Part shown: positions 27,401 through 58,784 of the stretch, in pieces
Numbering within the stretch: the stretch's first letter is position 1
How the letters are laid out: every line of letters begins with the position of its first letter
DNA from: an uncultured archaeon
Lineage (GTDB): Archaea > Thermoplasmatota > Penumbrarchaeia > JASLWR01
DNA length: 64,000 bases
NCBI GenBank assembly: GCA_964430885.1
Contig: CAYSHM010000009.1
Location: 1-64,000, forward strand
Direction of reading: 5' to 3'
Notes under the pieces: model-generated
The model's input: the letters and a program-made list of their open reading frames with translations, nothing else
What the model was told of the DNA's origin: nothing
Database searches by the model: none
Program-made: the position numbers and the translations under genes

Positions 27401-30400
27401 TGGCACAGCGTCCCAACTACAGGAGATGTTGCTCATTTCAGTGTGAACATAACTGACAATATTGATGTGGACATTGTTGCCTTCGAATTCACCTATGACA
27501 ACAACACCTATCAGACCTGGCCGGTAACAAACAACACAGGCCCGTCATATGAAATATCCATTATGATCTATCCGGGAGCACAGTTCATCAATTTCAGATT
27601 CTGGGTCAATGACACATCCAACAATGCACTTTATCAGGCCCACACCTATTTGCTAGTTGCTGACAACGATCTGCCCATATTTAGCGGACTGAGCTATTCA
27701 CCGCCCACAACTGGTGATAATTGGGTCCTTGGTGTCACAGTTTCGGATAATGTGGTCTTGGATTCTCTTCTGCTGTTCTTCACTCTGGATGGAAATGACC
27801 AGAAGGTTTGGGATATCAATAACGAAACCCAGCCGGATGTTTGGAGGATAACGGTGTCCATCCCCTGGAATTCAACCCATTTGGAGTTCTATATCCGAGC
27901 TGAGGATTCAACCGGAAACATGAATCAGAGCCAAAATGTTTCTCTTGGGGTGCTGGACAATGATGTGCCTTTGATGACCTCCCTGAGCTTTCTGCCCCTG
28001 ACAACTGGCGATATTACCAATTTCAGTATTGATATAGTTGACAATATACTGATTGATGCAGTGATGTTCAACTTCTCCTTCAATAACGACTCAGGTCACA
28101 CTTGGCAGGTATTGAACAGCACAATGGATACATGGAGCATAGAAATATCAATTCCTGATGACGGGGAGTATATGGAATACCAGTTTTGGGTAAATGATAC
28201 TTCCGGAAATGGTAATCAGACTCCATTGGCGGGCTCTTTCATATTGGATAATGACGCTCCAATGGCCGATGCCGGTGAAGATGTGATAATTGACCAGCAC
28301 CAGCATGCCTTGCTTCAATCTATTGGTTCCACAGATAATATAGGCATATCCAATTTAACATGGAGTTTCATGTATGATGGCTTGACTAGATTTGTATACG
28401 GTAATGATTCATCCTATTTATTCGACATATCGGGTAGTTACGTGATTTGGCTGAATGTAACTGATGGCAGTGGTAACTGGGATATGGATAATTTAACCCT
28501 GCTGGTTATGGATATAACCCCGCCTACGGTCACTGCGGGTATCGATATTCAGATCGATCAGCACGAGCTTGTGGAATTGAACGCAAGCGCTTGTAGTGAT
28601 AACGGAGTGATAAGCAGCTATGTTTGGACCATAACCCGAAATACTGTAAGAGGGAATTTCGTCAGGGATGCTGATCCGGTGATTCTTCTTGGAAGGATAA
28701 CCCATTTCGTATTTCACGACGCAGGGGCCTTCACGGTCAATCTGACCATTACCGATCAGGAAGGAAATAGTGCCAGTGATAATTTCTATGCCGAGGTAAG
28801 GGACACAACCGCCCCTGCAGCCTGGGCCGGTCCAGATATGATAGTTGACGAGGGAACCACCATAGAGCTTGATGGGACCCTGAGCACCGATAATGTTGCA
28901 ATATCAAATTATACCTGGCAAATTCATCATCCCCTGGAGATCAGGACCCTATACTATACGATGATTCCCTTCCTCTTTACATATGTGGGGGAATACAATA
29001 TCACCTTGAACGTAAGCGATGAAATGGGGAATTGGGATACCGATATGATGACTGTGATCGTGAATGATATAAGCTATCCTGTTGCCCATGCAGGAGAAAA
29101 TATTGCAGTTGATCAGGGAGAGCAATTTGTACTTAACGCATCAGAATCAAGTGATAATTACAATATTGTGAACTATACCTGGACCGTTGCGGGTAAATCA
29201 TATTACGAGCCGGTTGTGGAAATTTCCATCACCGATCCCGGAGTATATACGGCCCATCTCAGAGTTAAGGATGAAGTTGGTCATTCATCGGATGATACCA
29301 TTATTATTACCGTTCTTGATATTACGCCCCCAGTGGCGCGAATAACTCTCGAAGAGATTGTATATCCCGAAGATAAGGTTATAGTAATAGAAATGGGCCA
29401 TATCCAAGAGATTCATTTTGACGGACTGAAAAGTTCAGATAATGTCGGAATTGTCAATTTCACCTGGAGCATAGAAAATTTGACCTTATACTCTTCGAAA
29501 CTCACCTGGTCACTGAACAGTTCAGGTCTCATTAGGATAGACCTTTTGGTATTTGACCTTCGGGGCAATAAGGCCAATGCCACCCTTTTCGTGGATGTAG
29601 TGGACTTTATTCGCCCGGTTGCAGACGGAGGTCCTGATAGGCAGGCATATACTGGAGAAACAATAAAACTGAATGCAACCGCCAGTTATGATAATCAGGA
29701 AATAGTGGAATATGTATGGAGCTTCTGGTATCAGGGTGAACAGGTCATACTTGAAGGTCCCATCCATGAACTGTCCTTTGATCAGGAAGGGGATTATCTT
29801 ATCACTCTGAATGTAACAGATTCATTTGGAAATCACATGTCTGACAATGTCAAGGTTACGGTCAAGGAAGAACCCGAGTCTCCCTCCACTCCTGGTGATG
29901 ATGATTCGGATATAAATACGGATGATTCGTCATCTGATTCATTATCGGATCATTGCTGGTTTATTGGTGTTATAGTATTGATAATTCTGATCATTATAAT
30001 ACTTGTCATAGTGATGATTAACCGGCGGAAAAAGGAAGTGGATATACATGAGAAATCCTCCGAAGATGAAGATGACTCAGGGGATGAGAATGATGAAGTA
30101 TTGGAAGAACTTCTGTCTGACGGCAAGGATGAGGGAATTGGCAAGGATGGCGATAGTGCTGAAGAATCGTATTTGGATGATGAAGAAGATTATTATCTCC
30201 AAGAGGACGAATACCTTGATGATGAATATGACGAAGGCATAGTTGTGGATTTTGACGAAGAATACGGAGACGATGGATTCGATTCTGATAGTGATGACGA
30301 CATTGAAGGTGAAGAAAGTGATATTTTCGGGTATGATGACGAAGACGACTCCGAGGATGAAGGTGATAATTATTACGGAAGGGACGATGCCGAAGATATT

Positions 30401-30745
30401 ACTGAAGATTCCTTTGATAGATCATATTTGAATGATGGATTCGATTCTGAAATTGAAGATGCTGGGCTTGATGATGATGGTGAAGATTCCGCAGATATGT
30501 CCTGGGATGATTCAGGCAGCGAGGATAATGAGGAGATAGATGCAGGGTTCGCTTATTCTTCGTCATCAGAGGGAGGTTCTGGGAGATATGCTAATTATCC
30601 CGGGGTTGAGATCGAGTTTGACGATAGCCGTTATGTAGCAGCCGATGAGGAGGGCCTTGAGTTATCCTATGAATGTCCGGGCTGTGGCTCGATGGTCAAT
30701 TTCGGCGGGGCTGAATGTCCTTATTGCGGGTCAGGCTTCAACTGA
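24446..30745 (+). CDS. Membrane-anchored C1A (papain-like) cysteine peptidase with PKD/Ig repeats, acidic tail and zinc ribbon
   Basis: QGYEASCTAWS, NHAQTVVG, IVNSWG; many P.ADAG.D...FDGS.S.DN..I..Y.W PKD units; TM; D/E-rich tail; CPGC-x10-CPYC. Confidence 0.92.
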   Translation: MKQKIMIILTALILLSVNLFFATPHQDDDCRDISIIKPNDAYEPNVGHELFLDDVHTRSNNGYLYRNRAAGRVDVETLKEIVGIWQPGVDYNPKFDGFGTGLKPPRESEWEEMIGSAGLVTDVIALEGTRANVTSLDMMTEKYFPPIGSQGYEASCTAWSTTYYHKTYIEAREHDWDLSGASWVGGHTGQPTPINYQDKIMSPEFVYHQINEGEDGGSWMDDAYNLMAKVGTSSWEKMPYSCYDHTSWPTEEAWREAPLYRGDETIGVSEGWNWLWVENETGVENLRNLLISRIPVSISIDAGQFNTLGQMNDTWTLDTYGNPNRNHAQTVVGFDDERWYDENGSATQGAFKIVNSWGPGRQDSVYWISYESFKRDVNYVGFMYDKVNYNPETLAVFQISHSKRGECNISFGVGNISNPNGTKNYKVEHFDGGPVPFPNHVMAVDITEFKNNVTEINGSHFFLNVTDIETGTTGSIQSFWVEHYTDYINNSLYVGAPSDDPVVNTIQNTPVYAELDLVDDAAPEADAGEDQTIENNTMVQFDGTGSFDYSGITNYTWDFIYDGNPITLYGPDPQFQFNMYGSFLVNLNVTDPWNHWDMDNLTVFVEDITPPSADAGEDQWVEPGDLVTFDGSGSSDNVAVGNYTWTFTYDGNPQTLYEAGPSFQFDLPGIYTVTVVVEDTSTNTDTDTVTVWVNDSVLPAADAGIDQLVDQWDLVNFDGSGSSDNVGIASYEWTFNDGGGQTLNGVMPVYDFNNAGFFAVTLNITDLFGNWDEDVVNITVLDIELPQFGSEWHDDLETENPALLSINITDNVDVDKVFLNLSWNNGTWFSYPVTNYTLDSWEITLMPPMNATTLEYFFRANDTSDNWNISTATLIGVSDHTSPDFGQFWHGPLTTGESFLLSINITDNIGIDTVTLNISLDGGTVMSWQVANNTNDSWTIIINLPENALTVDCIFIAQDISGNKNTSAQQNFLVIDNDNPVFGGSWHSVPTTGDVAHFSVNITDNIDVDIVAFEFTYDNNTYQTWPVTNNTGPSYEISIMIYPGAQFINFRFWVNDTSNNALYQAHTYLLVADNDLPIFSGLSYSPPTTGDNWVLGVTVSDNVVLDSLLLFFTLDGNDQKVWDINNETQPDVWRITVSIPWNSTHLEFYIRAEDSTGNMNQSQNVSLGVLDNDVPLMTSLSFLPLTTGDITNFSIDIVDNILIDAVMFNFSFNNDSGHTWQVLNSTMDTWSIEISIPDDGEYMEYQFWVNDTSGNGNQTPLAGSFILDNDAPMADAGEDVIIDQHQHALLQSIGSTDNIGISNLTWSFMYDGLTRFVYGNDSSYLFDISGSYVIWLNVTDGSGNWDMDNLTLLVMDITPPTVTAGIDIQIDQHELVELNASACSDNGVISSYVWTITRNTVRGNFVRDADPVILLGRITHFVFHDAGAFTVNLTITDQEGNSASDNFYAEVRDTTAPAAWAGPDMIVDEGTTIELDGTLSTDNVAISNYTWQIHHPLEIRTLYYTMIPFLFTYVGEYNITLNVSDEMGNWDTDMMTVIVNDISYPVAHAGENIAVDQGEQFVLNASESSDNYNIVNYTWTVAGKSYYEPVVEISITDPGVYTAHLRVKDEVGHSSDDTIIITVLDITPPVARITLEEIVYPEDKVIVIEMGHIQEIHFDGLKSSDNVGIVNFTWSIENLTLYSSKLTWSLNSSGLIRIDLLVFDLRGNKANATLFVDVVDFIRPVADGGPDRQAYTGETIKLNATASYDNQEIVEYVWSFWYQGEQVILEGPIHELSFDQEGDYLITLNVTDSFGNHMSDNVKVTVKEEPESPSTPGDDDSDINTDDSSSDSLSDHCWFIGVIVLIILIIIILVIVMINRRKKEVDIHEKSSEDEDDSGDENDEVLEELLSDGKDEGIGKDGDSAEESYLDDEEDYYLQEDEYLDDEYDEGIVVDFDEEYGDDGFDSDSDDDIEGEESDIFGYDDEDDSEDEGDNYYGRDDAEDITEDSFDRSYLNDGFDSEIEDAGLDDDGEDSADMSWDDSGSEDNEEIDAGFAYSSSSEGGSGRYANYPGVEIEFDDSRYVAADEEGLELSYECPGCGSMVNFGGAECPYCGSGFN

Positions 30746-39483: not shown

Positions 39484-39819
39484 TTGATGGTGCAGGGAGA
39501 ACTAAAAAGGATAAAAAAGGCGGAAATAAAGGCAGAGGATAGGGTGGATGGTCTCAGAAAAAAGATCGAGATGGAGTTACCTGAATTAAAGGCCAAGTTG
39601 GTCAAGGATAAGGAATTGGAACTGGATGAAAAACGCAGGGAGCTGATATCGCGCAACAGGATCAAGAAGAGGTCCATTGACCGTATGGCCGAGGATATTA
39701 TCTCTTCCGGCAAGTCCGATTCAAAAAGGATTCAGGATAGAGTTCATAGAAATGTGGATGAGGTTAGCGAGTGGGTTTTCAGAAAACTGCTTTCCGACCT
39801 GGAAGATAATTCAGACTGA
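39484..39819 (+). CDS. atpH: A-type ATP synthase subunit H (G/H stator)
   Basis: Charged helical 111 aa (L.RIKKAE..AE); first gene before subunit I. Confidence 0.7.
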   Translation: MMVQGELKRIKKAEIKAEDRVDGLRKKIEMELPELKAKLVKDKELELDEKRRELISRNRIKKRSIDRMAEDIISSGKSDSKRIQDRVHRNVDEVSEWVFRKLLSDLEDNSD

Positions 39820-39892
39820 TTATTCCCTATAATATTTGGATCACTGAAATCAAACATACGGAGTTCAAAGTGAAAATGCGAGGAGTGGTAAA

Positions 39893-41914
39893 ATGCTTTT
39901 TCCCCGAAAGATGCTCAAAGCCAATATCATTGTTCATAAGAGCATTCTCTCTGGAGTGTTGGACTCTCTGGAGAAAACAGGGATAATGCAGATAGACCCC
40001 CTCGAGACTAATCTAGATGAAAAGACAAACAATGTTCTCAGGTCAATGGACCATCCTTTGGAATTAAAGGATCTGGCAGAGATGGAGATACGCCTGGAAC
40101 GCTTATGTGATATATTCAACTGTTATTTCCCGGAAAAGACCAGTATGATGGATGATATAAGATCAGCCTCGAAACCCCTTAAAAGAATTGAACCTTTTGA
40201 ATTCCATGATCTGATTTCCAGAACCCAGCGTCACCTATCAGTTTGGGAGGATAAGGTTCTAGCCCTGAACCAAGGGTACCTGGAATGCACGGAGGAATTG
40301 AAGACTCTAGCCGAGCGTAAAAAACAGCTTGAACTGCTACTCCCAGTTGATATTTCCCTTGATCTATTGGCCGAGGGCCCTTATACTTTTGTAAAGGTTG
40401 GAACCACACCTGATCCCTCTCATCTATATGAATCCATGAAGAATATAGCACTGGCCATCGTTAAGGTTTATCCAACCGGTCTTCCTGATACTCCCCATGT
40501 TGCAGTAGTTGCGGGTCTTCATGAAGTAATGGATGAGACAGTATCAGCACTGAGAGGGAAATTGTTCAACGAGCTTCAATTGAGGGATAATTCAGGTAGC
40601 CCGTCTCAATTAATAAAGGAAATTGAACGGTCTGAACTATCAGCCCATGCCTCCAGGGATGAGGCGTTGGAGGAGTTAAAGGGAATTCGCAACAAATACC
40701 TTAAAAAAACCCTTATCATGCTGGAATTGATCTCAGTTGAGAGAATGAAATTTGAAATGCATTCCAGTTTTGGAAAGACTGAACATACCATAGTGATATC
40801 CGGGTGGGTCGAGGAAAGGAAGCGCTCCGCATTGGAACGGATGCTCTCAAAATACAGGGAATTGTTCTTGGATCTTCAGGAACCTGACCTTAAGAAGGAT
40901 AATCCACCTTCCTCACTTGCACATTCTAAATATATCCGACCCTTCGAATCGCTGGTTACGGCATTCTCGCCTCCCAAATACAACGATCTTGATCCCACAC
41001 CTTTTGTAGGGATGCTTTTCATTCTTTTTGCAGGTCTTATGCTGGGCGATGCAGGATACGGAGCTATGATACTTATAGCATCTTTTTGGCTTGGCAGCAA
41101 GGTCAAAAAAGGATTCATGGCCGATATGGCCTATATGGGGAAGCTCTTCGGATCTGTGACCCTGTTGATGGGCCTTTTCACCGGTTCGGTATTCGGTGAT
41201 CTGATTCCCCGGTTATTCTACGGGGATCCTTTGAAACCGCTCTATACAATACCGGGTCTGGATTTCCTGCCCTACGATGCCCTTAGGAATCCCATGCCTC
41301 TTTTCCTATTCTCCCTGGGTGTGGGTATGGTAGCTATATACATGTCGGTTATTGTATCCTTTGTTACCCATGTGAAACAGGGTGATTATAGAAAGATGCT
41401 TTTCGAGGACATTGCCCTGCTGATGATGATACCCTCCCTTTCAGCACTTGCTGCTCAGCTCGTGGGAATGACCACGCTGCCTGACCTCATATTTCATCTG
41501 TCAGCAGCAGCCTTAATTTCCTCCATATTACTATTGGTTATAGCAAACAAGAGCATGCCCCTCTTAGCCCTTTTTGAGATAACCGGGTTTATAGGTGACC
41601 TCCTGTCATTTGCTAGGATCCTAGCCCTTGGACTGGCCACTGTGGCTTTGGCCATGACCTGGAACATAATGGCTGAACTTCTATTGCCTGATTGGGCGAA
41701 CATTGGTATGGGGATAATAAGAATAATACTGGTAATAGTGCTTCTTATAGCGCTGAACCTATTCAATTTTGCATTCCAAGCTTTGGGTGCATGCATCCAT
41801 TCATTAAGGCTCCAGTATATTGAGTTCTTCAACCGCTGTTATACAGGGGGCGGGAGGTTTTTCCAGCCCTTCAAGGCAGTGCGGATGTATACCACTCTAG
41901 AAAAGGATGAATAA
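39893..41914 (+). CDS. atpI: A/V-type ATP synthase subunit I (a)
   Basis: GWV, PP, P.Y...DPT, GLMLGDAGYG, LSFARILALGLA, IHSLRLQYIEFF...YTGGG. Confidence 0.95.
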   Translation: MLFPRKMLKANIIVHKSILSGVLDSLEKTGIMQIDPLETNLDEKTNNVLRSMDHPLELKDLAEMEIRLERLCDIFNCYFPEKTSMMDDIRSASKPLKRIEPFEFHDLISRTQRHLSVWEDKVLALNQGYLECTEELKTLAERKKQLELLLPVDISLDLLAEGPYTFVKVGTTPDPSHLYESMKNIALAIVKVYPTGLPDTPHVAVVAGLHEVMDETVSALRGKLFNELQLRDNSGSPSQLIKEIERSELSAHASRDEALEELKGIRNKYLKKTLIMLELISVERMKFEMHSSFGKTEHTIVISGWVEERKRSALERMLSKYRELFLDLQEPDLKKDNPPSSLAHSKYIRPFESLVTAFSPPKYNDLDPTPFVGMLFILFAGLMLGDAGYGAMILIASFWLGSKVKKGFMADMAYMGKLFGSVTLLMGLFTGSVFGDLIPRLFYGDPLKPLYTIPGLDFLPYDALRNPMPLFLFSLGVGMVAIYMSVIVSFVTHVKQGDYRKMLFEDIALLMMIPSLSALAAQLVGMTTLPDLIFHLSAAALISSILLLVIANKSMPLLALFEITGFIGDLLSFARILALGLATVALAMTWNIMAELLLPDWANIGMGIIRIILVIVLLIALNLFNFAFQALGACIHSLRLQYIEFFNRCYTGGGRFFQPFKAVRMYTTLEKDE

Positions 41915-41960
41915 CAAATATTGTAAGATACAGGTCAAACATTATAAAAATCGAGGTGAA

Positions 41961-42728
41961 ATGATGAAGAAATGGATGAGAAAATATCTCTTGGGTGCAT
42001 GCATGGTCGCTCTGGTATTCCTGCTTTTTTCAGGCTCGGCTATTGGAGAAGTGGATGCCGACGGAGATGGAATGGACGATGAATGGGAATCCAGTATAAT
42101 AAGGGCGAACGGATTGAACATGACCGTTGCCCAGTTCAGCAAGGATGCGGACCCGGATAATGACGGCGCTACCAATATCGAGGAGTACGAGAAAAGGACC
42201 GATCCCTATGATGGAACGGACTATCTGAAATCCACAAATTACGCTGCCAACGAGAAGGTCAATATTCTGATACTTCTGGGTGCTGCCTTATGTATTGGCA
42301 TACCCGGAATCCTTTCAGCCTTTGGTCTATATATCGCAGGAGTGTCTGCGGTAGGGATGACCACGGAACATACGGACAGGTTCGGAAAGGGGCTTATACT
42401 GCAGGCTCTTCCAATGACCCAGGGTGTTTACGGTCTGGTTTTCGCCATATTCATACTAATGGGTGCCGGTTTCATAGGAACACCTGATTCCAATCTGCTG
42501 GCCAATGTAAATGTAGGATGGGGCGCAGTTATGATCGGTGTTACAATATCCCTTACGGCAGTATCTGCCATACCCCAGGGATTGGTTGCTGGTGCAAGCG
42601 CCAGCGGAGTAGGCCGTAATCCTGATGTGTTCGGAAAGAGCGTGGTTTATTCAGTAATGCCGGAAACCATGGCAGTGTTCGGTTTCCTTATTGCACTTTT
42701 CATGACCATGGGTGTTGGACTGCTTTAG
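41961..42728 (+). CDS. atpK: A/V-type ATP synthase subunit K (c), 4-TM Na+-type, with N-terminal signal peptide and Ca-binding repeat
   Basis: LPMTQGVYG, SAIPQG, MPETMAVFG; GAGGTG before ATG 41961; N-terminal DADGDGMDDEWE...DPDNDGATNIEEY..TDP. Confidence 0.9.
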   Translation: MMKKWMRKYLLGACMVALVFLLFSGSAIGEVDADGDGMDDEWESSIIRANGLNMTVAQFSKDADPDNDGATNIEEYEKRTDPYDGTDYLKSTNYAANEKVNILILLGAALCIGIPGILSAFGLYIAGVSAVGMTTEHTDRFGKGLILQALPMTQGVYGLVFAIFILMGAGFIGTPDSNLLANVNVGWGAVMIGVTISLTAVSAIPQGLVAGASASGVGRNPDVFGKSVVYSVMPETMAVFGFLIALFMTMGVGLL

Positions 42729-42733
42729 TGGAT

Positions 42734-42817
42734 CAAAGGAATCCCTTCCGGAATATCATTTCAAAGCTGCCAAAAGTTCCTGCCAGGCCTTTGGAATGAA
42801 TCCCAGAGGTTCCTTTG
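42734..42817 (+). other. Long imperfect stem-loop in the atpK-atpE spacer
   Basis: CAAAGGAATC pairs with GGTTCCTTTG and TCATTTCAAAG pairs with CTTTGGAATGA, each with one G-U pair. Confidence 0.6.
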
Positions 42818-42898
42818 GCTAGCAGATAATCCATTGGTAGTCAATGAGCATGGTAAACCGAAATGAGATTATATAAATCCAACAATATGGGTGGTAAA

Positions 42899-43474
42899 AT
42901 GTCGCTTGAGAATATAATTGAGAAGATCAATAGCAAGAGGGACGAGGAAATCAGAGAACTGAAGAATAAAAGAGAGAGAGAGATTTCAGTTTTTTCAGAG
43001 GAGTTGGAGGAAAAGGCGGAAAAAGACTTGATGAATCTGATTCAGGAATATGATGGAGATATAGAGATATTTAAGAACCTCAGGATATCCCAGGCAAAAA
43101 GGCAGGTCAAGCAGAGTGACCTTGAAACCAAGGAGAAACTCATCAATGAAACCCTTGAAAAGGTCAGGAAGGATCTAGAAGAGTTCAAGGGACCGAGATA
43201 TGAGAGTATACTGAAAAAGCTGGTAAAGGAGGGGAAAGAGATACTGGATACCCATTGCATCCTTATCCCGTCAAGAAAGGAGGATATTCCTTTCCTTGAA
43301 TCCCTTGATGCCGGCAGCGTATCAAATGAGATAATCCATGGGTCAGGTGGATTGATAATGGTGTCTCTTGAAGGTGACCTCAAGCTTAACCGAACCTTCG
43401 ATTTCTTCATGGAGAAAAAGAGGGATGAGCTCAGGCATATGATCGCACATGAGCTCTTTAAAAATGATGTATAA
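42899..43474 (+). CDS. atpE: A-type ATP synthase subunit E
   Basis: MSLENIIEKI, long helix, GGLI....G....N.TF. Confidence 0.9.
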   Translation: MSLENIIEKINSKRDEEIRELKNKREREISVFSEELEEKAEKDLMNLIQEYDGDIEIFKNLRISQAKRQVKQSDLETKEKLINETLEKVRKDLEEFKGPRYESILKKLVKEGKEILDTHCILIPSRKEDIPFLESLDAGSVSNEIIHGSGGLIMVSLEGDLKLNRTFDFFMEKKRDELRHMIAHELFKNDV

Positions 43475-43569
43475 ATGATGTCGGATCTATTCTGGATCAA
43501 TATTGAAAGTAAAGAGGATTTATTGAATTATTTCATGGGAATAACCCGATAAAAAGAGAGTGACAGGAT

Positions 43570-44745
43570 ATGTGGATTGATACAATAGCCAGCTATGATA
43601 TGACCACCATAATACTTATAGGGGTACTTGCAGTGGTGTTTCTGGCTACCATCATTTATCTTGCCGCAAAGGTGCCTCTAGTCTGGACAATTGCCCGGTT
43701 CGGTTATTCCAATGCGATATATAATTCAAGGATAAACCGGTTTGTCCAGAAGATATATCTATTGGGTCTCCTTGAAACAGCTGACATATCCGAAGCTTCA
43801 AATTATATATCATCGGTCAACAGCAGGGATTTTCCGGTCAAATCGGCGGATTCTCCGGAAGATATCGAAAGGCTGCTAGTTGAAAAACTTCATCAGAGAT
43901 ATTCGGAAGCTGTTGCCCTCTGCCCTAAATCCCTCAAATCGGTTCTGGATGCAAATCTCATCAAGTATGAGAATCAGGCTTTGAAATCCATATTCACCTC
44001 GTATTTCAAAGCTCAGGATAAAGAGGGAGGAACCCGTGCTTCCCATTATGAAAAGGTACCGCCCATAGGGAATCTATCTGAGGGAGTTATCAAGGATATG
44101 CTTAACGCTGAAACATTGAAGGATCTAATAGATCTCATACCCCGGGAGGATATTAGAGAACAATTAAATAACCGTAAACCAGAGCATTTTCATGATGCTG
44201 AGATGATTCTCGATAATTATTACCTTAATAATCTAACTGTGAGAATTAAAAAGGCCCCTTCGCCCCTGAGAAAGGAACTGACCGATCTTCAAATGGTCAA
44301 CGTGGACCTTCATAATATGAGAGCCTTGATGAGAATGGTCAGAACCTCAGTTGACCCAAAATACCGGAAAAAGATTTATTCATTTCATCTAGGTAAGAAT
44401 CTTGGCCGGACTACAATTGACCAACTAATTAATGCAGAGGATATGGCGAATTTCATAGAGGCACTCAAGGATACCCCATACGGTCCCATGTTCAGAAGTG
44501 TTTACTCCGAATTCCAGAAGGACCGCAGAACCTCTGTATTTGAACTGGAACTTGACCGATTCTGGATAAAATATATCGAAAATTTTGCATTAAGGACCAA
44601 CACCACGGTAGGCCCCATTATCAGGTATCTTCTCGAACTCGAATATGAGGTCAGGAACATAAATTCAGTATTGAAAGGATTGGAACTTCCAGGGGGCAAG
44701 GAATTGGCTAGACAGGTAATTATCTGTTCGGAGGGTGATCTATGA
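43570..44745 (+). CDS. atpC: A-type ATP synthase subunit C, with N-terminal hydrophobic helix
   Basis: YSNA, P.G.L, D..N...R, L.DTPYG, FELELD, E.EVRNI. Confidence 0.88.
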   Translation: MWIDTIASYDMTTIILIGVLAVVFLATIIYLAAKVPLVWTIARFGYSNAIYNSRINRFVQKIYLLGLLETADISEASNYISSVNSRDFPVKSADSPEDIERLLVEKLHQRYSEAVALCPKSLKSVLDANLIKYENQALKSIFTSYFKAQDKEGGTRASHYEKVPPIGNLSEGVIKDMLNAETLKDLIDLIPREDIREQLNNRKPEHFHDAEMILDNYYLNNLTVRIKKAPSPLRKELTDLQMVNVDLHNMRALMRMVRTSVDPKYRKKIYSFHLGKNLGRTTIDQLINAEDMANFIEALKDTPYGPMFRSVYSEFQKDRRTSVFELELDRFWIKYIENFALRTNTTVGPIIRYLLELEYEVRNINSVLKGLELPGGKELARQVIICSEGDL

Positions 44746-45086
44746 ACATAGGGGTTATTGGCGATCGTCATACCGTGGAGGCTTTTCGTCTGATAGGCGT
44801 CAGCAGAGGCTGTATTTTGAGAGACCCTGGGGATGATGCAGCCGTGAAGGCATTGGGCGGTAGGTTTGATGAACTGACCAAAGAAGGAGCTGTAGCTGTA
44901 ATATTGATAACTGAAACGGCACGCAGGCTAATATCTGAAAGGATCGATTACTATTCAAAATTCAAACCTCTTTTCCCATTGATAATTTCCATCCCAGACA
45001 TATCCGGCGAGGATACCGAAGTTGATCATCTGTCCAGACTTATAGAAAGAGCAGTGGGTATCAGCCTCGAAAATGTGGATCAATAA
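44742..45086 (+). CDS. atpF: A-type ATP synthase subunit F
   Basis: IGVIGD..TV.AFRL.G, ILITE, P.I..IP, I.RAVG. Confidence 0.92.
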   Translation: MNIGVIGDRHTVEAFRLIGVSRGCILRDPGDDAAVKALGGRFDELTKEGAVAVILITETARRLISERIDYYSKFKPLFPLIISIPDISGEDTEVDHLSRLIERAVGISLENVDQ

Positions 45087-48159: not shown

Positions 48160-51100
48160 GTGTATATGCGTAATTTAATGTCATTGTTAGTTGTGAGTCT
48201 ATTTCTGTTCACGTCTTTTATGAATGTGTCGTTCACGTCGGATGTGGGCGGTTATCTGGAAAGCGAATCGGAAGAAATCACCCGTGCCGGCCCTCAGGTC
48301 CATGAGAGTGAACATGGCGGCTGGTGGCTGCAGGATGATGACGAGGATTTTGAGGGCGGTGAGTTCGAGGATGCTGAGATCGGTGATAATGTGGTTCAGG
48401 CGGTCAGGGAAGCATTGCCATTGAGTGATTGGGAATGGGAAGGAGTTAATTTAAATTTGAATCCAGGCCCTAGAAGGGGACATGCAATGGCTTATGATAT
48501 TGAAAATAAAAAAGTAGTATTATTTGGAGGTAAGTATTCAGATTCCCAGGGACAGCATTATTACCCTAATACATGGGTCTTTGATGTGGCAACCAATCAA
48601 TGGAACCAAATAGGGTCTGGACCGGGAGAGCGCGAAGGCCATTCTATGGTATATGATGAATATAATAGGCGAGTACTTCTTTTTGGTGGTGTAAAATGGC
48701 AAAGTCCAAATCCAATATATTATGGTGATACCTGGTTTTATGATACAGAAAATAATACTTGGGATTTAGTATCTGATAGTGGTCTTCCTGCTAGACGTTA
48801 TCATTCAATGGCTTACGATAGGATTAATCAAAAGATAGTAGTATATGGAGGTGATGGGGAGGTTCCTAATTGTGGATTTAAAACTTGCATTTTCATGTGC
48901 AGAGATAAAACATGGTTTCAAGTACCTGAGGATGGACCGGTTTATACTACTACTGGTGATATTGCTTTTGATAATAACTTAAATAAAATAGTATTATATG
49001 GAGCCCATGATGGAACTTGGCTTTTTAACACCAATAACAATATGTGGCAGGAATTTCAAAATATAGGTTCTTTTGGAACCATGGAGCATTATTCATGTAT
49101 TTATGATGAAAAAAGTCAAAAAACTGTGATATATGGGGGTTCTAAGAACAATCAACCAGATTTAAGCTCCGAAACCTGGACATTGAATAGTAGTGGGTGG
49201 ATAAAAGGAATATCTGGTCCTGTTGGCAGAAATCAACACGATATGGTCTATGACAGCCATAATCATAAATCAATATTATTCGGCGGATACGCCCAAGATT
49301 ATCTTTCCGATACCTGGACCCTCACAACCTCCCAAATAGTCCCCGAAGCCACTTATACCTCCCCTTCCATCTCTCTCCCATTAAACCAGCAGTGGGACGA
49401 GCTCAACATCAACGCCACCGAGCCCGACAATACCAAGCTCACCGTCTCCGTAATGAACGCGGACACAGGGCTCTACATACCAGATTACCGCGACATGGAG
49501 CCAAGGGAAGTGGACCTCTCGGGGTTGGATGCGGCCAATATAAAACTCCGCTGTCACCTGGAGAGTAGTGGTGATATATCACCTGAATTGGATTCCTGGA
49601 AGGTCACCTGGAAACCTAAAGTCGTAGAACCCGTTTATCTAGGTGGAATTCCTTCGGCCTTGTATGTCACAGAAGATACACCCCAGGATAACATTCTAAA
49701 CCTTTCAGAGTACTTCGGAGAAGGACGCAGGTCTAATACCAGAAGTACAGGGCTCGATTATTCATTTGCTTCCATATCAAATACCGACAATATCACTTTA
49801 TTGATCGATGAAGATCATATTGACGTGATCTATCTTGAGGACAACTGGACCGGCAAGACCGATGTAGTTGTTGAATGCGAGAATACTGAAGGTACAACTG
49901 TGCAGTCTCCCCGATTCAGCATTATTGTCCAGGGTGTGAACGATCCCCCAGCGTGGCGCTTGCCTCTTCCTCCTATAATCATGGACGAGGGTTTCCAGTT
50001 CAAATCCGCTTTCAAAGTCGATGATTACATTCTTGACGCTGAAGAAGACATGATGGATATAACAGCCAGCTGTGACAATCCCGATGTATCCGTAGTGGTG
50101 GACCCTGAAACTCGTATCATTATAACTCCCAAAGAGGATTTCTACGGTTTGGCAAATGTTACAGTCGCAGTCAAGGAGACCTATGACCCTTCTAATAAAA
50201 TACAACAATCGGTTTCCCTAATAGTCAATTCAGTTAACGATGATCCGGTAATAGAGTTACTCACTCCGGGTGATAACGCAGTGTTCAATGATGTCAATGT
50301 TACCCTAAGCTGGATGGGGTCGGATATTGAAACCCCCATTGATCAGCTGACCTATGATGTATTTTTGGGAAATGATTTAGATCCGGCCATACACTCTAGG
50401 GGAATAAAAAATACTTCGATTCTGCTGAGCAGCCTATCAGATAAAAGTACATACAGATGGAAGGTTGCAGTATGGGATACCCAGGGGAAAATGGTTTCTT
50501 CGCCGGTCAGGACCTTCAGGATAGACACGGATTCTGACCCACTGCCGGGCAGTTCAGGAGAAGGTTTGAAGTTCACTGTGGAAGTAACCGGTGAAGAAGT
50601 ATCGGTAGCTCAGGGTAATACTACCTCATTCAATGTGAAGGTTACCAATGATGATTCAATGGATTTAACCCTGGGAGTTCTGGCGGCTGGCATGACTGCA
50701 CCCTATGTAGATGTGGATAATATTCTGACCCTGGAAAAAGAAAAGAGCAAGGATCTGACTGTTTTGATCAGCCCAGGTTATAGTGTAAAGCCTGGAGACT
50801 ACGATCTGGTGCTTCTATTCATATCACCCGATGGAGTTAAATGCGTCACTATTCCCATCGATATATTGAAGGGTACGGATCCATCTGATACAACTGGTAA
50901 TGACGATGAGGAAGATGATGATTCCGAACCCAAAGATCAGAATACCGAGGAACCTGCAACAAAGACATCTTCATCTGTGAATGATACGCTGTTCTACATG
51001 ATAATAGCAGTTCTTGTACTCGTACTGATACTTCTGGCAATAGGCTTCCTGATCACCTACCGGAAGACCGAGCAGCTGCAGACCGAAATTGATCAGAAAC

Positions 51101-51480
51101 GGGAACAATCTCCAGAAACACAAAAGGAATCGCCCCCTGAGGTGGTAGAAACCGAGATGTACTATCCTGAGAACAATAAGGCATTTACCCCTCAGCCCCG
51201 AATGGATCAATCCGGAGCTGACTATAATATGCCGGGATCCTTTCCTCCAGGTGACTACCCGCCTGTAAACCAGCATATTGATGTTCAGCTCCCAGGTCTT
51301 CCTCCTGAAAGGGAATCACTTCCTGAAATGACTCAAGCATCGTCTAAGGAAGTCGTTCAGACTCAGCCTCCGACGCCAGCCGGTCCCGAGGTTCAGCTGC
51401 CTCAATCGGTCCAAACCCCAATTCCTTCGGAGGATATGAAGATGCTTCCCCAGAAGGTAACTCCGCCGCCGCCACCCTGA
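48160..51480 (+). CDS. Surface protein: Kelch-type propeller, cadherin/FN3/Ig-like domains, TM, Pro-rich tail
   Basis: Repeats P..R.GH.M.YD......LFGG......TW; VNDPP/VNDDP linkers; TM; Pro-rich C-terminus. Confidence 0.85.
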   Translation: MYMRNLMSLLVVSLFLFTSFMNVSFTSDVGGYLESESEEITRAGPQVHESEHGGWWLQDDDEDFEGGEFEDAEIGDNVVQAVREALPLSDWEWEGVNLNLNPGPRRGHAMAYDIENKKVVLFGGKYSDSQGQHYYPNTWVFDVATNQWNQIGSGPGEREGHSMVYDEYNRRVLLFGGVKWQSPNPIYYGDTWFYDTENNTWDLVSDSGLPARRYHSMAYDRINQKIVVYGGDGEVPNCGFKTCIFMCRDKTWFQVPEDGPVYTTTGDIAFDNNLNKIVLYGAHDGTWLFNTNNNMWQEFQNIGSFGTMEHYSCIYDEKSQKTVIYGGSKNNQPDLSSETWTLNSSGWIKGISGPVGRNQHDMVYDSHNHKSILFGGYAQDYLSDTWTLTTSQIVPEATYTSPSISLPLNQQWDELNINATEPDNTKLTVSVMNADTGLYIPDYRDMEPREVDLSGLDAANIKLRCHLESSGDISPELDSWKVTWKPKVVEPVYLGGIPSALYVTEDTPQDNILNLSEYFGEGRRSNTRSTGLDYSFASISNTDNITLLIDEDHIDVIYLEDNWTGKTDVVVECENTEGTTVQSPRFSIIVQGVNDPPAWRLPLPPIIMDEGFQFKSAFKVDDYILDAEEDMMDITASCDNPDVSVVVDPETRIIITPKEDFYGLANVTVAVKETYDPSNKIQQSVSLIVNSVNDDPVIELLTPGDNAVFNDVNVTLSWMGSDIETPIDQLTYDVFLGNDLDPAIHSRGIKNTSILLSSLSDKSTYRWKVAVWDTQGKMVSSPVRTFRIDTDSDPLPGSSGEGLKFTVEVTGEEVSVAQGNTTSFNVKVTNDDSMDLTLGVLAAGMTAPYVDVDNILTLEKEKSKDLTVLISPGYSVKPGDYDLVLLFISPDGVKCVTIPIDILKGTDPSDTTGNDDEEDDDSEPKDQNTEEPATKTSSSVNDTLFYMIIAVLVLVLILLAIGFLITYRKTEQLQTEIDQKREQSPETQKESPPEVVETEMYYPENNKAFTPQPRMDQSGADYNMPGSFPPGDYPPVNQHIDVQLPGLPPERESLPEMTQASSKEVVQTQPPTPAGPEVQLPQSVQTPIPSEDMKMLPQKVTPPPPP

Positions 51481-54206: not shown

Positions 54207-57200
54207 CTACTTCATTCTCCTTATAAACTCCTCTGTGCTAAGGTTTCCTTCAAGATACTTCTTTCTTAGGTCGTTGATGTCACCTACAATATCTGAAGAC
54301 ATCTCCGTATCAAGGGACTGCAGAGTATATCCGACCCCGTAAACCGTCAGTTCCTTGTTGGTTTTGCTGTAGAGATGTTTCTTGGCCTTGGACTTGAACA
54401 CCAGAACCAGTATGAACAAGATTACACATAGAACGGCAAAGACGATCAGGATCGTCATCTTATCCTCTTCGAGTATGTCCGACACCGATGTGATCTCCAC
54501 TTTCTCAGACCCTGCCTTGATTGTTTCCTGACTGGACCACATATCCTTTGTAGCAAAGGTATAATTGTAGTCACCGGATTTCAGGTCTTTGACCACGACC
54601 TCATAATATCTTCCGTCATAGAGGCTGGGAAGGACAAAATCGATATTGTCACCGTAATATTCTTCATTTGTCTTCTCAAGGGCGGTCATCTCGAATTCCT
54701 TTCCGCCGATCCTGAGCTTCACATATTCAGGTTCGTCCTTGTCACCGTCTGCAACATAAATCCTGAACACGTCTCCGCGATTGGGATTGTATTCATACTC
54801 GGGATATACCTTGTCATTGTAAGCGTCGGGATTGGTATCAGCTTTCACACCCTCCTTGGTCCTTTCCTTGAAGTAGGCGGGATTGTTCTGAGATACGTAT
54901 AATGTGTTACCATCCTTGAACCTACCTGTAGCGAGTTCCAGCTGAATACTGTTGTAGTTGGATTTCCAGGAGTCATCGCATCTCAGGTCCTGGCCTTTTC
55001 CTATACATAATGTATACCAATCGAAGGGCAGATCGCTGAACATGAAATATCCTGAATCGTCAGTTGTTGTGGATTCACGGAAAATTGGTTCACTTCTGCT
55101 CACAATTACCAAATTGGGAACACCTAGATAAAGATCCACAACGAGATTATTTAGAGAACTAGTGCCACTCACAGTTCCGGATATCCTTCCTTTGGTGGGT
55201 TCCTCGCCCACTATAATGTCAAATTGCTTTGTTACGGTTGTATATCCAGAATATGTTGCTGTGAATACTATAATTGTGATCTGGTCATTGGTGGGCTGGA
55301 CGGTTATCTCGACTCTTCCATTTCCATCAGTAGCGTAGCTTCCGTAGGTGCCGGTAGACACAGTTATGGTAACGCCGGAAAGTTTCTCGGATGTCTCGTT
55401 GTCCGTCACGGTCACTATCACTCTGTTCTCCTGATGCATATATATCTCATCACCACCGTCAATCTCCATCTCCAGGATTCCAGGGTACATATCTATTGTC
55501 ATGAAAGTGTAGGCCTTGTTGATGTTGAAGGTCTTTATGACCCCCTTGTAGTCGCCGTGGGTTACCGTCAGGGTATAGGAGCCGTAATTAAGCTGCTGTT
55601 CAAGCAGATACCATCCATTCCCTGAATCGTAATATATATAATAATTGGTATTCTGTTCAAGGTTGTATTTCAACTGGACCGTTGCGTCGGAAACACTGTT
55701 GTTAGTTCCGCCTTCTATGAGCAATAGTTTGAATCCAGGTTTAGTCATGCTGACGTTTATAATCAGATCTGCATCACTTACGGTTACTCGCACCTCGTAA
55801 GGCAAGTAGGTTCCGTAGGGATTGCCAACTTCCCAGTTGATGTGGGTTATGTTCAATATGTAGTCACCGTTCTCAATGTTATAGAATCTCCAATAATAAC
55901 CATAAGCTCCAGTGTAGAACTCATAATAGTTATCATACAGCTGGGTTGCACTATCCACAAGGGCGTTTGAAAGAGCGGTTGTGTCCTCGGGATCTATTGA
56001 CAGTTTGTTCAGTGAGTAAAGTTTTACATAGAACTGACCGCTGGATGTGAATGGATTGCCGGTAGCATTGTCATACATCAGGACTATGAACCTTTTATTT
56101 GTCAAGGTAAGGTTCTTCCAGACCCACTGGTCGGCATATATCCTCACACCAATTGACATTGTAGCATAATCCTGGTGAGTAATGATAAGAGTATAATTAC
56201 CAATGAGGATAGGGCTGAGTCCATATGTGTAATAACCGTTCCAATTCCCTAGAGTAATTGATTGGTTATCCATGTTCTGTCTTATCAGCGTAAGTGTGGC
56301 GCTTTCGGTTATGGTGTTATTGTCCTCGTCCTTAAGTGCAACTAGAATTCCTCCGGTTTTTCTATTAATATAACCGTGAACCTGGCTTGCCTGACTTTCC
56401 TGAATTATCGCCTGGGTTGAGAATGGAATATAATCCTCAAGGGAGAATCGAACAGTATACATTCCGGTTGGAATATTTGCAAATTCATAATATCCATCGT
56501 TATTGGATCTTGTACTGAGGCCAGTCCCTACTATGTCAACATTAGCATTTCTTACTATATGGGATTGGTCATCGTATACATATCCGTTCAGTGATCCGTA
56601 GGTGGGTGTCAACATTATATCCAGATCCTTATTCTGCCCCTCTTCCATTGTGATCATGGTCGAGAAGGGCGCATATCCGTTGTGATTCACCTGGATCCAG
56701 ATAGTTTGTTTTGGCATTCCGCTGGTCATATAGTCTCCGGAATCATCCGATAGGAAAGCTCCCCACTGCTCAGTCTGTCCCTCGTTCCAAATCTGTATCG
56801 GGACATTGGAAATCGGGTTGCTTGTGAAGTTATTCAGAACAGTACCGCCTATTGTACCAGCCACCAGAAAAGTAGTGGTATCCTGGGGGAGGAATTCTAT
56901 CCTCAGGTAATAGGGATGGGCCATATCGTAACCCAATCCGCTTTCGACCATAATGATATATTCACCGGGGATACCTCCAGGTATGGTGAACATCTCTTGC
57001 CCTGTTGAACCATAGTTGTATTTATCTCCGCACTTGTAATAGGTGCTGTCAGGACCGTAGACCTCATAATGGTAGTATATGCCTTGGACGAAATTTGGTG
57101 TTGTTACATATATGTCAAGCGTTCCAACATAGCTGTCATCGAAGGAGAATGTATAGTAGTCCCTATCGCCCTGATGTTCAATTGTTCCATACATCTCACC

Positions 57201-58784
57201 AAGGTGATATGCCCTGCCGTCACCCGGCTCCAGCATGGTGATGTTCTCGGAAAGGTCTGGCTCGTTATTGTCTCCAATTCCTGCATGCTCCTCTTCAGTG
57301 GGCAGATTGTTTCCCGGAGTAAAACTGAAATGAAGTCTGTATGCTTCCGCTCTTATCACCGGATTTCCCACTCCAACTCCCATCACCCGTATGTAATATA
57401 GGGCAGGTCTTACCGCTAGAAGAGTTTCGGTATATTCACCGGCGGTTCCCTGATTGGATACGTTGAGGAAATCACTGGCAGGTCTGTCTGTTCGGAATAT
57501 GGTATACCAGTAAGTAGGATTTACCGCAAGTGTATTTGGAGTGTCAAAGAAGAATTCAAGTTCACCTAGAACCGCACCGGGAAGACTGATATTGTACCAG
57601 TCCTGGTCAGTTTCGCTGTCCAAAGTACCCTTTGCAGTTCCATTATATACCCCGCCGCCGACATTTGATAATTGAACGGTAGTAGCGCTGTCCATAAGAT
57701 CATTCTGCTCAACTGGTTCCTCAAGTTCCGATTCAAGCTGAACGTTTGGATCGGCATACATTTCCGGTGTGAAATTGAGATAGATCCTGTAAGGTTCGAA
57801 AGCAGAGTAGCTGGTTAAGGTCTCATCGAAAACCTCCATTAGGTAATTACCTGGGGGAAGCATGCTACCGCTGATAAGTGTGGCTCCTGCAGCACCGCTG
57901 TCCTCTCCGGACAGCATTATGTCCTCGGCATTTGTCCCGGAGGGCTGAGGTCCGTATAATTTTAAATCATATGTATGACCATTATGAGTTCCCGTTATGT
58001 CCTTGTAGAATGTTTCGAACTGTATATTCACCCGTCCACCAGTAGGTGCTGATAGGTTGATGAGGTACCAGTCGTGATCTGTATCTGAACGAACGGTTCC
58101 AAAGAACTCCACCTCTTTAAGCTCAGTTCCAGTAAGGTTCATCGGAGTAGCGTCAATGGCTTCGTCATTGGGTTGGTTCTTGTCTAGTATTTCAGATTCC
58201 ACCAGCATGTCTCCGTCGGCTGTAAAAGTGAAATTGAATTGGTAATCGTCAGGAGTCACTACGGTAGTGCCCTGGGTCACCTTCACCCGAACATAGTAGA
58301 ATCCAGGTCCTGCTGCCCAGCAAGTTTTCATGGTTGCGAGATTGTTGTTCTGCCCCTGGTCGCTACCGTATACATACTGTTTGGATGCGGTATCGTCATT
58401 TGCTTCATAGACCGTGAATTCATAGTCTGGATTAACCGAGACGTTGAATGGTGCTGTAAGACTCACGTTGATGATGCCTGGATCACTGCCTCCTACAGTT
58501 ATCTTGAACCAGTCCACATCCGCTTCTGCAGATAGGCTTCCGTTCACCAGTAAGGGATCCCCGGGAGTTCCAGCATTGAATTCATCAGCAGTTCCACTGA
58601 GGTCGTTCCCTTCACTTTCCACCTCCTGCCCTCTTACGCCAAGTCTTTTAACTGTATCTGTAAGTTTCAACTTCTTCATTTCACTGCTGCTGCTAGTCAG
58701 GTTGATCACTGCAGAGAATCCCGAAAAAAGCATCAAGAATATAACTGCTACTGAAAATAACCTTATTGTGTTGTTTCCCTTCAT
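54207..58784 (-). CDS. Large surface protein: 4 PPC-like repeats, carboxypeptidase-regulatory/PEGA-like sandwiches, TM anchor
   Basis: Four units E.E..N...A.....G....D.DW/YY; signal peptide; C-terminal TM with short tail. Confidence 0.82.
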   Translation of the reverse strand: MKGNNTIRLFSVAVIFLMLFSGFSAVINLTSSSSEMKKLKLTDTVKRLGVRGQEVESEGNDLSGTADEFNAGTPGDPLLVNGSLSAEADVDWFKITVGGSDPGIINVSLTAPFNVSVNPDYEFTVYEANDDTASKQYVYGSDQGQNNNLATMKTCWAAGPGFYYVRVKVTQGTTVVTPDDYQFNFTFTADGDMLVESEILDKNQPNDEAIDATPMNLTGTELKEVEFFGTVRSDTDHDWYLINLSAPTGGRVNIQFETFYKDITGTHNGHTYDLKLYGPQPSGTNAEDIMLSGEDSGAAGATLISGSMLPPGNYLMEVFDETLTSYSAFEPYRIYLNFTPEMYADPNVQLESELEEPVEQNDLMDSATTVQLSNVGGGVYNGTAKGTLDSETDQDWYNISLPGAVLGELEFFFDTPNTLAVNPTYWYTIFRTDRPASDFLNVSNQGTAGEYTETLLAVRPALYYIRVMGVGVGNPVIRAEAYRLHFSFTPGNNLPTEEEHAGIGDNNEPDLSENITMLEPGDGRAYHLGEMYGTIEHQGDRDYYTFSFDDSYVGTLDIYVTTPNFVQGIYYHYEVYGPDSTYYKCGDKYNYGSTGQEMFTIPGGIPGEYIIMVESGLGYDMAHPYYLRIEFLPQDTTTFLVAGTIGGTVLNNFTSNPISNVPIQIWNEGQTEQWGAFLSDDSGDYMTSGMPKQTIWIQVNHNGYAPFSTMITMEEGQNKDLDIMLTPTYGSLNGYVYDDQSHIVRNANVDIVGTGLSTRSNNDGYYEFANIPTGMYTVRFSLEDYIPFSTQAIIQESQASQVHGYINRKTGGILVALKDEDNNTITESATLTLIRQNMDNQSITLGNWNGYYTYGLSPILIGNYTLIITHQDYATMSIGVRIYADQWVWKNLTLTNKRFIVLMYDNATGNPFTSSGQFYVKLYSLNKLSIDPEDTTALSNALVDSATQLYDNYYEFYTGAYGYYWRFYNIENGDYILNITHINWEVGNPYGTYLPYEVRVTVSDADLIINVSMTKPGFKLLLIEGGTNNSVSDATVQLKYNLEQNTNYYIYYDSGNGWYLLEQQLNYGSYTLTVTHGDYKGVIKTFNINKAYTFMTIDMYPGILEMEIDGGDEIYMHQENRVIVTVTDNETSEKLSGVTITVSTGTYGSYATDGNGRVEITVQPTNDQITIIVFTATYSGYTTVTKQFDIIVGEEPTKGRISGTVSGTSSLNNLVVDLYLGVPNLVIVSRSEPIFRESTTTDDSGYFMFSDLPFDWYTLCIGKGQDLRCDDSWKSNYNSIQLELATGRFKDGNTLYVSQNNPAYFKERTKEGVKADTNPDAYNDKVYPEYEYNPNRGDVFRIYVADGDKDEPEYVKLRIGGKEFEMTALEKTNEEYYGDNIDFVLPSLYDGRYYEVVVKDLKSGDYNYTFATKDMWSSQETIKAGSEKVEITSVSDILEEDKMTILIVFAVLCVILFILVLVFKSKAKKHLYSKTNKELTVYGVGYTLQSLDTEMSSDIVGDINDLRKKYLEGNLSTEEFIRRMK

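Follow-up and report, generated by a model that had tools for sequence, protein, structure and literature searches.

A signal-peptide-like segment and an acidic, putatively Ca2+-binding module fused to the rotor c subunit of an uncultured Thermoplasmatota archaeon

The atpK gene and its product

In textbooks, rotor c subunits exemplify the minimal hairpin protein, with hardly any extramembrane mass, and their known variation concerns the number of hairpins, the ion sites and one extra helix, present in subunit c''. Described here is atpK, a gene for such a subunit (subunit K of an A-type ATP synthase) in an uncultured marine archaeon (Thermoplasmatota; Penumbrarchaeia; JASLWR01). The gene lies on the plus strand of contig CAYSHM010000009.1 (assembly GCA_964430885.1), of which the first 64,000 nucleotides were analysed; this whole stretch is called the window, and coordinates refer to it. 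The atpK product consists, in order, of a signal-peptide-like segment, an acidic module, a helical stalk and a four-helix c-subunit core. The gene and the parts of its product are as follows.

41953..41959, plus strand: Shine-Dalgarno-like GAGGTGA, read from the sequence
41961..42728, plus strand: atpK, encoding a pre-protein of 255 amino acids (aa), with stop codon, within the open reading frame (ORF) 41907..42728
41961..42047, plus strand: signal-peptide-like segment, residues 1-29, with a basic n-region (MMKKWMRK), 21 uncharged residues and an A-I-G end before E30
42048..42218, plus strand: acidic module, predicted to be exported, residues 30-86 (57 aa), one unit of the bacterial thrombospondin type 3 (TSP3) kind with two loop-helix motifs
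42219..42257, plus strand: stalk, residues 87-99, predicted outward helical extension of the first transmembrane helix (TM1), part of a continuous helix 87-136 in the AlphaFold2 model
42258..42725, plus strand: four-helix c-subunit core, NtpK-like, with 2bl2_A as its best Foldseek match

Translation of atpK likely starts at the ATG at 41961, separated by one base from GAGGTGA; gene calls in databases begin at the next ATG (P0002, 254 aa). The initial annotation of the window had read MMKKWMRKYLLGACMVALVFLLFSGSAIG, then EVDADGDGMDDEWE ... DADPDNDGATNIEEYEKRTDP, in frame with two ATP-synt_C hairpins, and the product translation agrees. A signal-peptide-like start, DxDxDG repeats and a proteolipid with four transmembrane (TM) helices do stand in one frame where that annotation had placed them. 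It had also raised a translation start downstream of the repeat. No such start is available in frame before codon 128, inside TM1, and from codon 54 to codon 128 of atpK there is no in-frame ATG, GTG or TTG at all. Thus, any intact four-helix subunit contains the second repeat, and making an exported one requires the signal segment.

Between residues 30 and 99, Asp and Glu outnumber Lys and Arg by 19 to 6. AlphaFold2 models the whole of AtpK with a mean pLDDT (predicted local distance difference test) of 90.2. The model draws on an alignment of 47 homologous sequences, ~40% identical to the window protein, to which all counts of 47 given below refer.

A genuine and conserved fusion

A PF00137 search of the organism's own genome (44 contigs) returns two matches only, of 54.6 and 51.0 bits, both inside the atpK ORF, and atpK is the only c-subunit gene found there. 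The initial annotation had proposed a search for the same fusion in related genomes, where it is indeed present: in 31 of 41 genomes, a set that counts the own genome, the best match reaches back to query residue 32 or further. This holds for all four genomes of the own family and for 23 of the 24 genomes of the largest family. The 10 other genomes give the core only (seven) or no full match (three, one of them 62% complete). A search of 5.8 billion proteins brings the homologs of the same layout to about 70, with lengths of 233-280 aa. They come from assemblies of NCBI, JGI, ENA and Logan, and those that are named belong to Thermoplasmatota. Where they bear a name at all, these homologs are annotated as hypothetical proteins or plain subunit K. 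The gene context is conserved as well: each of the 19 loci checked in relatives has atpI directly upstream of atpK, and atpE was detected downstream in nine of the 19 (E ≤ 1e-5).

Independent assemblies carry the same fusion. Contigs of a third sample (X3) cover 41832-42097 and 42193-42343, which include both fusion junctions, with zero differences, and contigs of two runs, possibly the source itself, span the entire stretch. A contig from an RNA library (X4) covers 42054-42252 with one difference and gives a weak hint that atpK is transcribed; the stretches that X3 and X4 leave uncovered carry no information. The junctions seen in the third sample, together with dozens of independent assemblies, counter the assembly chimera that the initial annotation had named as a possible flaw. 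The fusion is genuine and ancient, and both a chimera and a wrong start are excluded for practical purposes.

The acidic two-loop module

Within the module, two 12-residue loops flank a glycosylation sequon.

42054..42089, plus strand: putative Ca2+ loop 1, residues 32-43 (DADGDGMDDEWE), followed by helix 40-49
42117..42125, plus strand: N-x-T sequon N53-M-T55, between the two loops
42150..42185, plus strand: putative Ca2+ loop 2, residues 64-75 (DPDNDGATNIEE), followed by helix 72-77

In the first loop, D34, D36, D40, W42 and E43 are invariant in all 47 homologs, and D32 is conserved in at least 90% of them. In the second, D64, D66, D68, G69, N72 and E75 are invariant. With these 11 invariant positions, conservation of the module equals that of the membrane core. 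Loop positions 3, 5, 9 and 12 are invariant in both loops, as are positions 1 and 6 in loop 2. The loop expected of TSP3 repeats, D-x-D-x-D-G in which positions 9 and 12 bear acidic or amide side chains, thus occurs twice. In the structure model, each loop and the helix that leaves it are arranged as in EF-type loops and TSP type-3 repeats. Folded alone, the module reaches a pLDDT of 91.4, against ~90 within the full model. Its net charge ranges from -10 to -21 among the 47 homologs, and at least one N-x-S/T sequon falls within it in 43 of them. TM1 is modelled as helical from residue 87, i.e. for ~13 residues beyond the membrane. This pattern of conservation indicates that the loop positions of the extension are under strong purifying selection. 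It would also make removal of the module from the mature subunit, another weak point listed in the initial annotation, unlikely. Two Ca2+ sites per protomer are predicted, and N53 may carry a glycan.

A canonical EF-hand (PF00036) was considered and rejected: the match has an E-value of 0.27 with no passing stretch, and residues 25-39 are coil, with no helix before loop 1. When the alignment profile is compared with PDB sequences outside c subunits, only non-significant EF-loop matches appear. The best of them is lanmodulin, which binds lanthanides (E 0.067), ahead of an EF-hand protein (0.082), a surface protein associated with biofilms (0.19) and calcineurin B (1.2). The lanmodulin match (6mi5_X) extends over profile positions 27-83, and loop 2 has Pro at position 2. 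Proline at that loop position is a known trait of lanmodulin. The likeness is probably a coincidence. A complex prediction with four module copies (residues 30-92, alignment given) scores 0.02 against a mark of 0.42; run without controls, it says nothing either way on contacts between modules.

The signal-like segment, the rotor core and its ion site

The layout of the N-terminal segment is that of a Sec-type signal, with a basic n-region, a hydrophobic h-region and a small-x-small c-region. Nearly all of the 47 homologs have the basic n-region. Their uncharged run measures 19-33 residues (median 24) and ends with small-x-small in 29, or has this motif no more than two residues from its end in 40; the first charged residue thereafter is usually Asp or Glu. 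In AtpK, these features are consistent with Sec export and with cleavage by signal peptidase after G29.

The remainder of the protein is a four-helix c subunit of the NtpK type. PF00137 (ATP-synt_C) matches AtpK at 85.9 bits, with a cut-off of 24, in two stretches, and matches all 47 homologs. The model superposes on Enterococcus hirae NtpK (2bl2_A) with a Foldseek TM-score of 0.89 (normalized to the target) and a root-mean-square deviation of 1.6 over 156 columns, at 31% identity. NtpK is the best sequence match too (phmmer E 6.3e-15). The hairpins and the counterparts of the NtpK ion site are placed as follows.

42276-42455 and 42534-42704, plus strand: ATP-synt_C hairpins, from the PF00137 search of the own genome
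42408..42422, plus strand: TM2 motif L150-P-M-T153-Q154, aligned with NtpK L61, T64 and Q65; P151, M152, T153 and Q154 invariant
42576..42578, plus strand: Q206 in TM3, aligned with NtpK Q110; invariant
42663..42668, plus strand: E235-T236 in TM4, the single ion-binding carboxylate, aligned with NtpK E139-T140; invariant

Residues L61, T64, Q65, Q110 and E139 of NtpK are those that we take to be its Na+ ligands, from the work on 2BL2. Their counterparts are invariant in the 47 homologs, L150 excepted. Since M152 occupies the place of a second carboxylate in TM2, each set of four helices holds one ion site. Taken together, the conserved positions suggest that the enzyme is coupled to Na+. All testable features are present, and AtpK is a member of the V/A-type K-subunit family.

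The distribution of Lys and Arg obeys the positive-inside rule: two residues each in the TM1-2 and TM3-4 loops and none in the TM2-3 loop. The N terminus of NtpK-type V/A c subunits faces outside, and the N-out topology predicted for AtpK fits this family. According to the initial annotation, every rotor subunit would display the module on the outer face. The first half of this statement holds at the level of synthesis, because with a sole c-subunit gene every rotor protomer is made with the module; the outer-face placement fits the charge census and the topology of the family.

The two-loop unit in other proteins of the genome

The unit is not private to AtpK. In the same genome, the module profile recovers another 64 units, frequently arrayed in tandem, from 22 other ORFs that encode 197-4502 aa. 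Examples outside the window are G000:C3:49274-52090 and G000:C22:33513-36482. Three ORFs found by the profile were scanned with Pfam; scores of 68.5 and 30.5 bits take two of them over the TSP3_bac cut-off, and the third has no TSP3 match. Thirteen of the 22 have a strongly hydrophobic, TM-like segment that begins 15-47 residues past their last unit; a signal-like segment at the N terminus is present in most of these. In atpK, the gap between module and membrane is 15 residues. The two-loop TSP3 unit is thus the usual membrane-proximal element of the type-I surface proteins of this archaeon, and its juxtamembrane use across surface proteins implies a generic role beside the membrane. The shared order of signal, unit, 15 residues and membrane helix suggests how the atpK fusion originated.

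Exported domains on other c subunits

When 118 homologs are classed by their N termini with a hidden Markov model (HMM) of the module, 68 have the module (twice in one), 35 a signal-like segment and an acidic non-repeat linker, 13 are plain and two are partial. A tree of the core does not reject a single clade of module-bearing forms (approximately unbiased test, P 0.68); its backbone is unresolved and no order of events is claimed. A few homologs have two TSP3 units before the core, among them P0021 (280 aa); at G020:C40:10242-11102, two adjacent module matches fall within a 293-aa frame. A genome of another class (G037) encodes a short signal and an acidic tail.

In several other lineages, signal-like N termini followed only by acidic low-complexity linkers occur on the V/A c subunits P0071-P0095 and P0105-P0121 and at loci L026-L029 and L031. 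One long-branch group with signal and linker, of 225-236 aa, comes from ENA assemblies. From these sequences, signal peptides on K subunits seem to be widespread and unremarked.

Longer forms escaped an earlier word-based search (448-2000 aa), which missed ectodomain-bearing proteins, and were recovered by an exhaustive search over 1.84 billion representatives, whose output was dominated by giant TSP3-array proteins. P0171 has a signal, a PKD domain (PF00801/PF18911) and four hairpins, and the partial P0090 has a PKD domain (PF00801/PF18911) and two hairpins. In P0207, P0236 and P0146, a signal and ~100 unassigned, sequon-rich residues precede four to six hairpins. As judged from these sequences, exported domains on V/A-type c subunits arose more than once, and such repeated ectodomain fusions weigh against the extension being a throw-away leader. 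Very long multi-hairpin c subunits are also found: P0122 (1042 aa) has 12 ATP-synt_C stretches in Pfam, and P0127 (784 aa) and P0183 (1139 aa) have 7 and 10 stretches matching the profile. These three recall the many-hairpin subunit of Methanopyrus.

The gene cluster and its surroundings

The A-type ATP synthase cluster (possible atpH, then I, K, E, C and F) occupies window positions 39484-45086 on the plus strand. Besides atpK, it comprises the following genes.

39484-39819, plus strand: possible atpH, a small ORF without significant Pfam match
39893..41914, plus strand: atpI (subunit I/a, 673 aa), PF01496 V_ATPase_I, 70.1 bits, directly 5' of atpK
42863..43474, plus strand: atpE, PF01991, 65.5 bits
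43570..44745, plus strand: atpC (subunit C/d), PF01992, 142.7 bits
44742..45086, plus strand: atpF, the last gene of the cluster, PF01990, 52.5 bits

The position of atpK between the genes for subunits I and E is that of a K subunit in A/V-ATPase clusters. The A-ATPase genes are split, with two ATP-synt_ab (A/B-type) genes on another contig (C15:67336-69677). After atpF comes a convergent minus-strand gene for a protein of the endonuclease/exonuclease/phosphatase (EEP) family. Large putative surface proteins are encoded on both sides of the cluster.

24446-30745, plus strand: putative surface protein, 2099 aa, with many PKD domains
48160-51480, plus strand: putative surface protein, 1106 aa, with Kelch repeats
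54207-58784, minus strand: putative surface protein, 1525 aa, with CarboxypepD_reg and PEGA domains

A proposed rotor collar and its alternatives

The following scheme is proposed. The Sec-type signal peptide (residues 1-29) would drive export of the 57-residue acidic module (30-86), in which each of the two DxDxDG loop-helix motifs of the TSP3/EF-loop type would hold one Ca2+. The short helical stalk would connect the module to the NtpK-like four-helix subunit with its one Na+-type site. After insertion, and probably after cleavage, the ring would carry on its extracellular rim a rotating, Ca2+-loaded and probably glycosylated acidic collar. With ten protomers, as in E. hirae, such a collar would amount to ~70 kDa and 20 Ca2+ sites. 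The module would act as a self-contained structural pedestal or cap, stiffened by Ca2+, that in Ca2+-rich seawater stabilizes and shields the outer mouth of the rotor ring. Neither a Ca2+ switch nor a static tether is envisaged: fixed anchoring to the envelope would bring rotation to a halt, which favours a self-contained pedestal. Both the geometry of the collar and its structural role are inferred. It is probable, with appreciable room for doubt, that the module stays on the mature ring. A role in assembly, stability and shielding of the outer mouth is proposed more tentatively, as a possibility that falls short of being probable.

Several observations weigh against this scheme. The genome is 91.6% complete, and a second c-subunit gene could be missing from the assembly. 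The uncharged run of the N-terminal segment, at its median length, is long enough to remain as a membrane helix. Sister families of the same class do without the repeats: G005, G006, G010 and G014 have a signal and an acidic non-repeat linker, and G008 has neither, so that the module is dispensable for an A-type rotor. Against the Pfam family TSP3_bac (PF18884), AtpK scores 12.4 bits (E 0.15), below the cut-off of 25, which a single short TSP3 unit can hardly reach. The TSP3-like repeat of the initial annotation is thus supported by 12 of the 47 homologs, which match TSP3_bac at E ≤ 0.01 (best 3e-06), and by the profile links within the own genome, and is not supported by the Pfam score of AtpK itself. 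Lastly, no solved fold matches the module model: the best Foldseek match in the PDB has an E-value of 7.5, and VIA-align against ~48,000 chains reaches a Z of 2.2 at most. Chains of the thrombospondin, dockerin or EF-hand kind are absent from the module fold matches listed, and such folds are still possible. Ca2+ binding therefore rests on motif logic.

The alternative that survives best, although unlikely, is that the N-terminal segment stays uncleaved as a fifth TM helix, as in c'', with the module as an extracellular loop between this helix 0 and TM1. The uncharged runs of all lengths seen in the 47 homologs can span a membrane, and AlphaFold2 makes residues 2-24 helical at a pLDDT of 86-90. 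Chains of c'' are among the best Foldseek matches (6vq6_b, E 3.0e-05), yet ~160 aligned columns for 255 residues correspond to the size of the core only. The basic n-region combined with small-x-small is the classic signal-peptidase I layout, this motif ends the run before the first acidic residue or comes close to doing so in most homologs, and conservation of the segment is low, as expected for a leader that is removed. Because the ring contacts subunit a with its outer face, room for about ten additional helices would be needed inside it. An uncleaved segment is compatible with a collar.

A second alternative, improbable on present evidence, regards signal and acidic module as a biogenesis aid for translocation of the N tail and N-out insertion of TM1, trimmed off afterwards to leave an ordinary mature rotor. 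Acidic N tails favour translocation, and related lineages combine a signal with a short acidic tail or linker devoid of repeats, the signal-plus-linker form being that of the 35 homologs out of 118 mentioned above. A disposable leader would not, however, retain the 11 invariant loop positions, the sequon in most homologs and a confident fold. Independent fusions of folded PKD domains to c subunits exist, and no processing motif is kept between families in the stalk.

Handling of ions by the collar is less probable still. Here, the acidic ring would raise the local concentration of Na+ or H+ at the outer half-channel of subunit a, or rotation would be tuned by the filling of the Ca2+ sites. The strongly negative charge of the module throughout the 47 homologs, its inferred location where coupling ions enter during synthesis, and the conservation of all five Na+-site positions accord with such a function. 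Bound Ca2+, however, would neutralize part of the charge. Seawater contains ~10 mM Ca2+; the sites would always be full, with nothing to sense, and regulation by Ca2+ thus seems unlikely. The presence of the module next to the membrane anchor in 13 unrelated surface proteins points instead to a generic structural role. Finally, an artefact, i.e. a wrong start codon or an assembly chimera of the 5' end of a surface-protein gene with atpK, has a negligible likelihood in view of the lack of in-frame starts between codons 54 and 128, the fusion in 31 of 41 genomes, assemblies from four sources and identical contigs from the third sample.

Relation to known systems

The closest known relative by structure is NtpK of the E. 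hirae Na+ V-type ATPase (K10 ring, PDB 2BL2), which shares with AtpK the four-helix duplicated hairpin and the single ion site. The NtpK chain (156 residues) begins within ~15 residues of TM1, without signal peptide or exported domain; in AtpK, 99 residues precede the core. Subunit c'' (Vma16/ATP6V0B), found among both the fold and the sequence matches, also has an extra N-terminal hydrophobic segment. In c'' this extra helix is retained and joins TM1 directly, whereas in atpK the segment looks cleavable and the 57-residue module precedes TM1. Bacterial TSP3 repeats (PF18884) share the D-x-D-x-D-G...D/N..E loops and are known from long arrays in surface and secreted proteins, in contrast to the single two-loop unit on a rotor subunit here. 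Mitochondrial subunit c precursors, e.g. the isoforms of T. brucei, reportedly carry a removable N-terminal targeting peptide. That peptide is a matrix-targeting presequence and leaves no folded domain on the mature protein, unlike the proposed atpK product. A leader that undergoes processing has reportedly been found on the c subunit of Clostridium paradoxum as well.

On the eukaryotic side, a luminal cap made of ATP6AP1/Ac45 and ATP6AP2, or of Voa1 in yeast, has been seen by electron cryomicroscopy inside and over the V-ATPase c ring; 6vq6 and 6wlw are among the Foldseek matches of AtpK. By analogy, the collar would likewise be a glycosylated mass on the non-cytoplasmic face of a V/A c ring that rotates with the ring. 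The cap proteins are separate, single-pass and unrelated in sequence, and occur once per ring, whereas the atpK module is fused to every protomer. The likeness is an analogy and no homology is claimed.

In M. mazei, the N terminus of AtpK is unprocessed save for Met excision and acetylation (PMC4350412). A study of Marine Group II, in the portion consulted, looked at AtpK for its Na+ motif only (10.1101/349548). The terms 'signal peptide' and 'extension' are absent from the accessible text of a 2026 preprint on rotary ATPase evolution, supplements aside. In the full-text literature, no report of a signal peptide or an exported domain on a prokaryotic c/K subunit was found; supplements and subscription journals lie outside this scope, and absence from print is unproven. 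The present analysis contributes the use of the unit beside the membrane, the ectodomain fusions on other c subunits and the start-codon test.

Significance

Archaea of this kind employ one TSP3 unit as a juxtamembrane element of general use, in the rotor subunit as in surface proteins, and the fusion also bears on how these subunits are annotated. Within a class of Thermoplasmatota, rotor collars that are fused, Ca2+-loaded and glycosylated, taken with the fusions of PKD and other domains to multi-hairpin c subunits in other archaea, might constitute an unrecognized class of ectodomain-bearing rotor rings, a generalization that is conceivable and, for the time being, doubtful. If the signal peptide were retained, the ring would contain a third, inner circle of helices. 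The fusion raises the questions of how a ring with about ten ectodomains assembles and turns under the envelope, how the collar relates to stoichiometry and stability, and whether it is an analogue of the luminal cap. The collar could itself set the assembly or the stoichiometry of the ring. If the proposal is true, each protomer of a prokaryotic ring would bear a folded domain outside the membrane, which rotary motors would thereby gain as a new structural element. The wider class of rings, if it exists, would be an independently evolved prokaryotic way of capping the non-cytoplasmic face of the c ring, comparable to ATP6AP1/Voa1.

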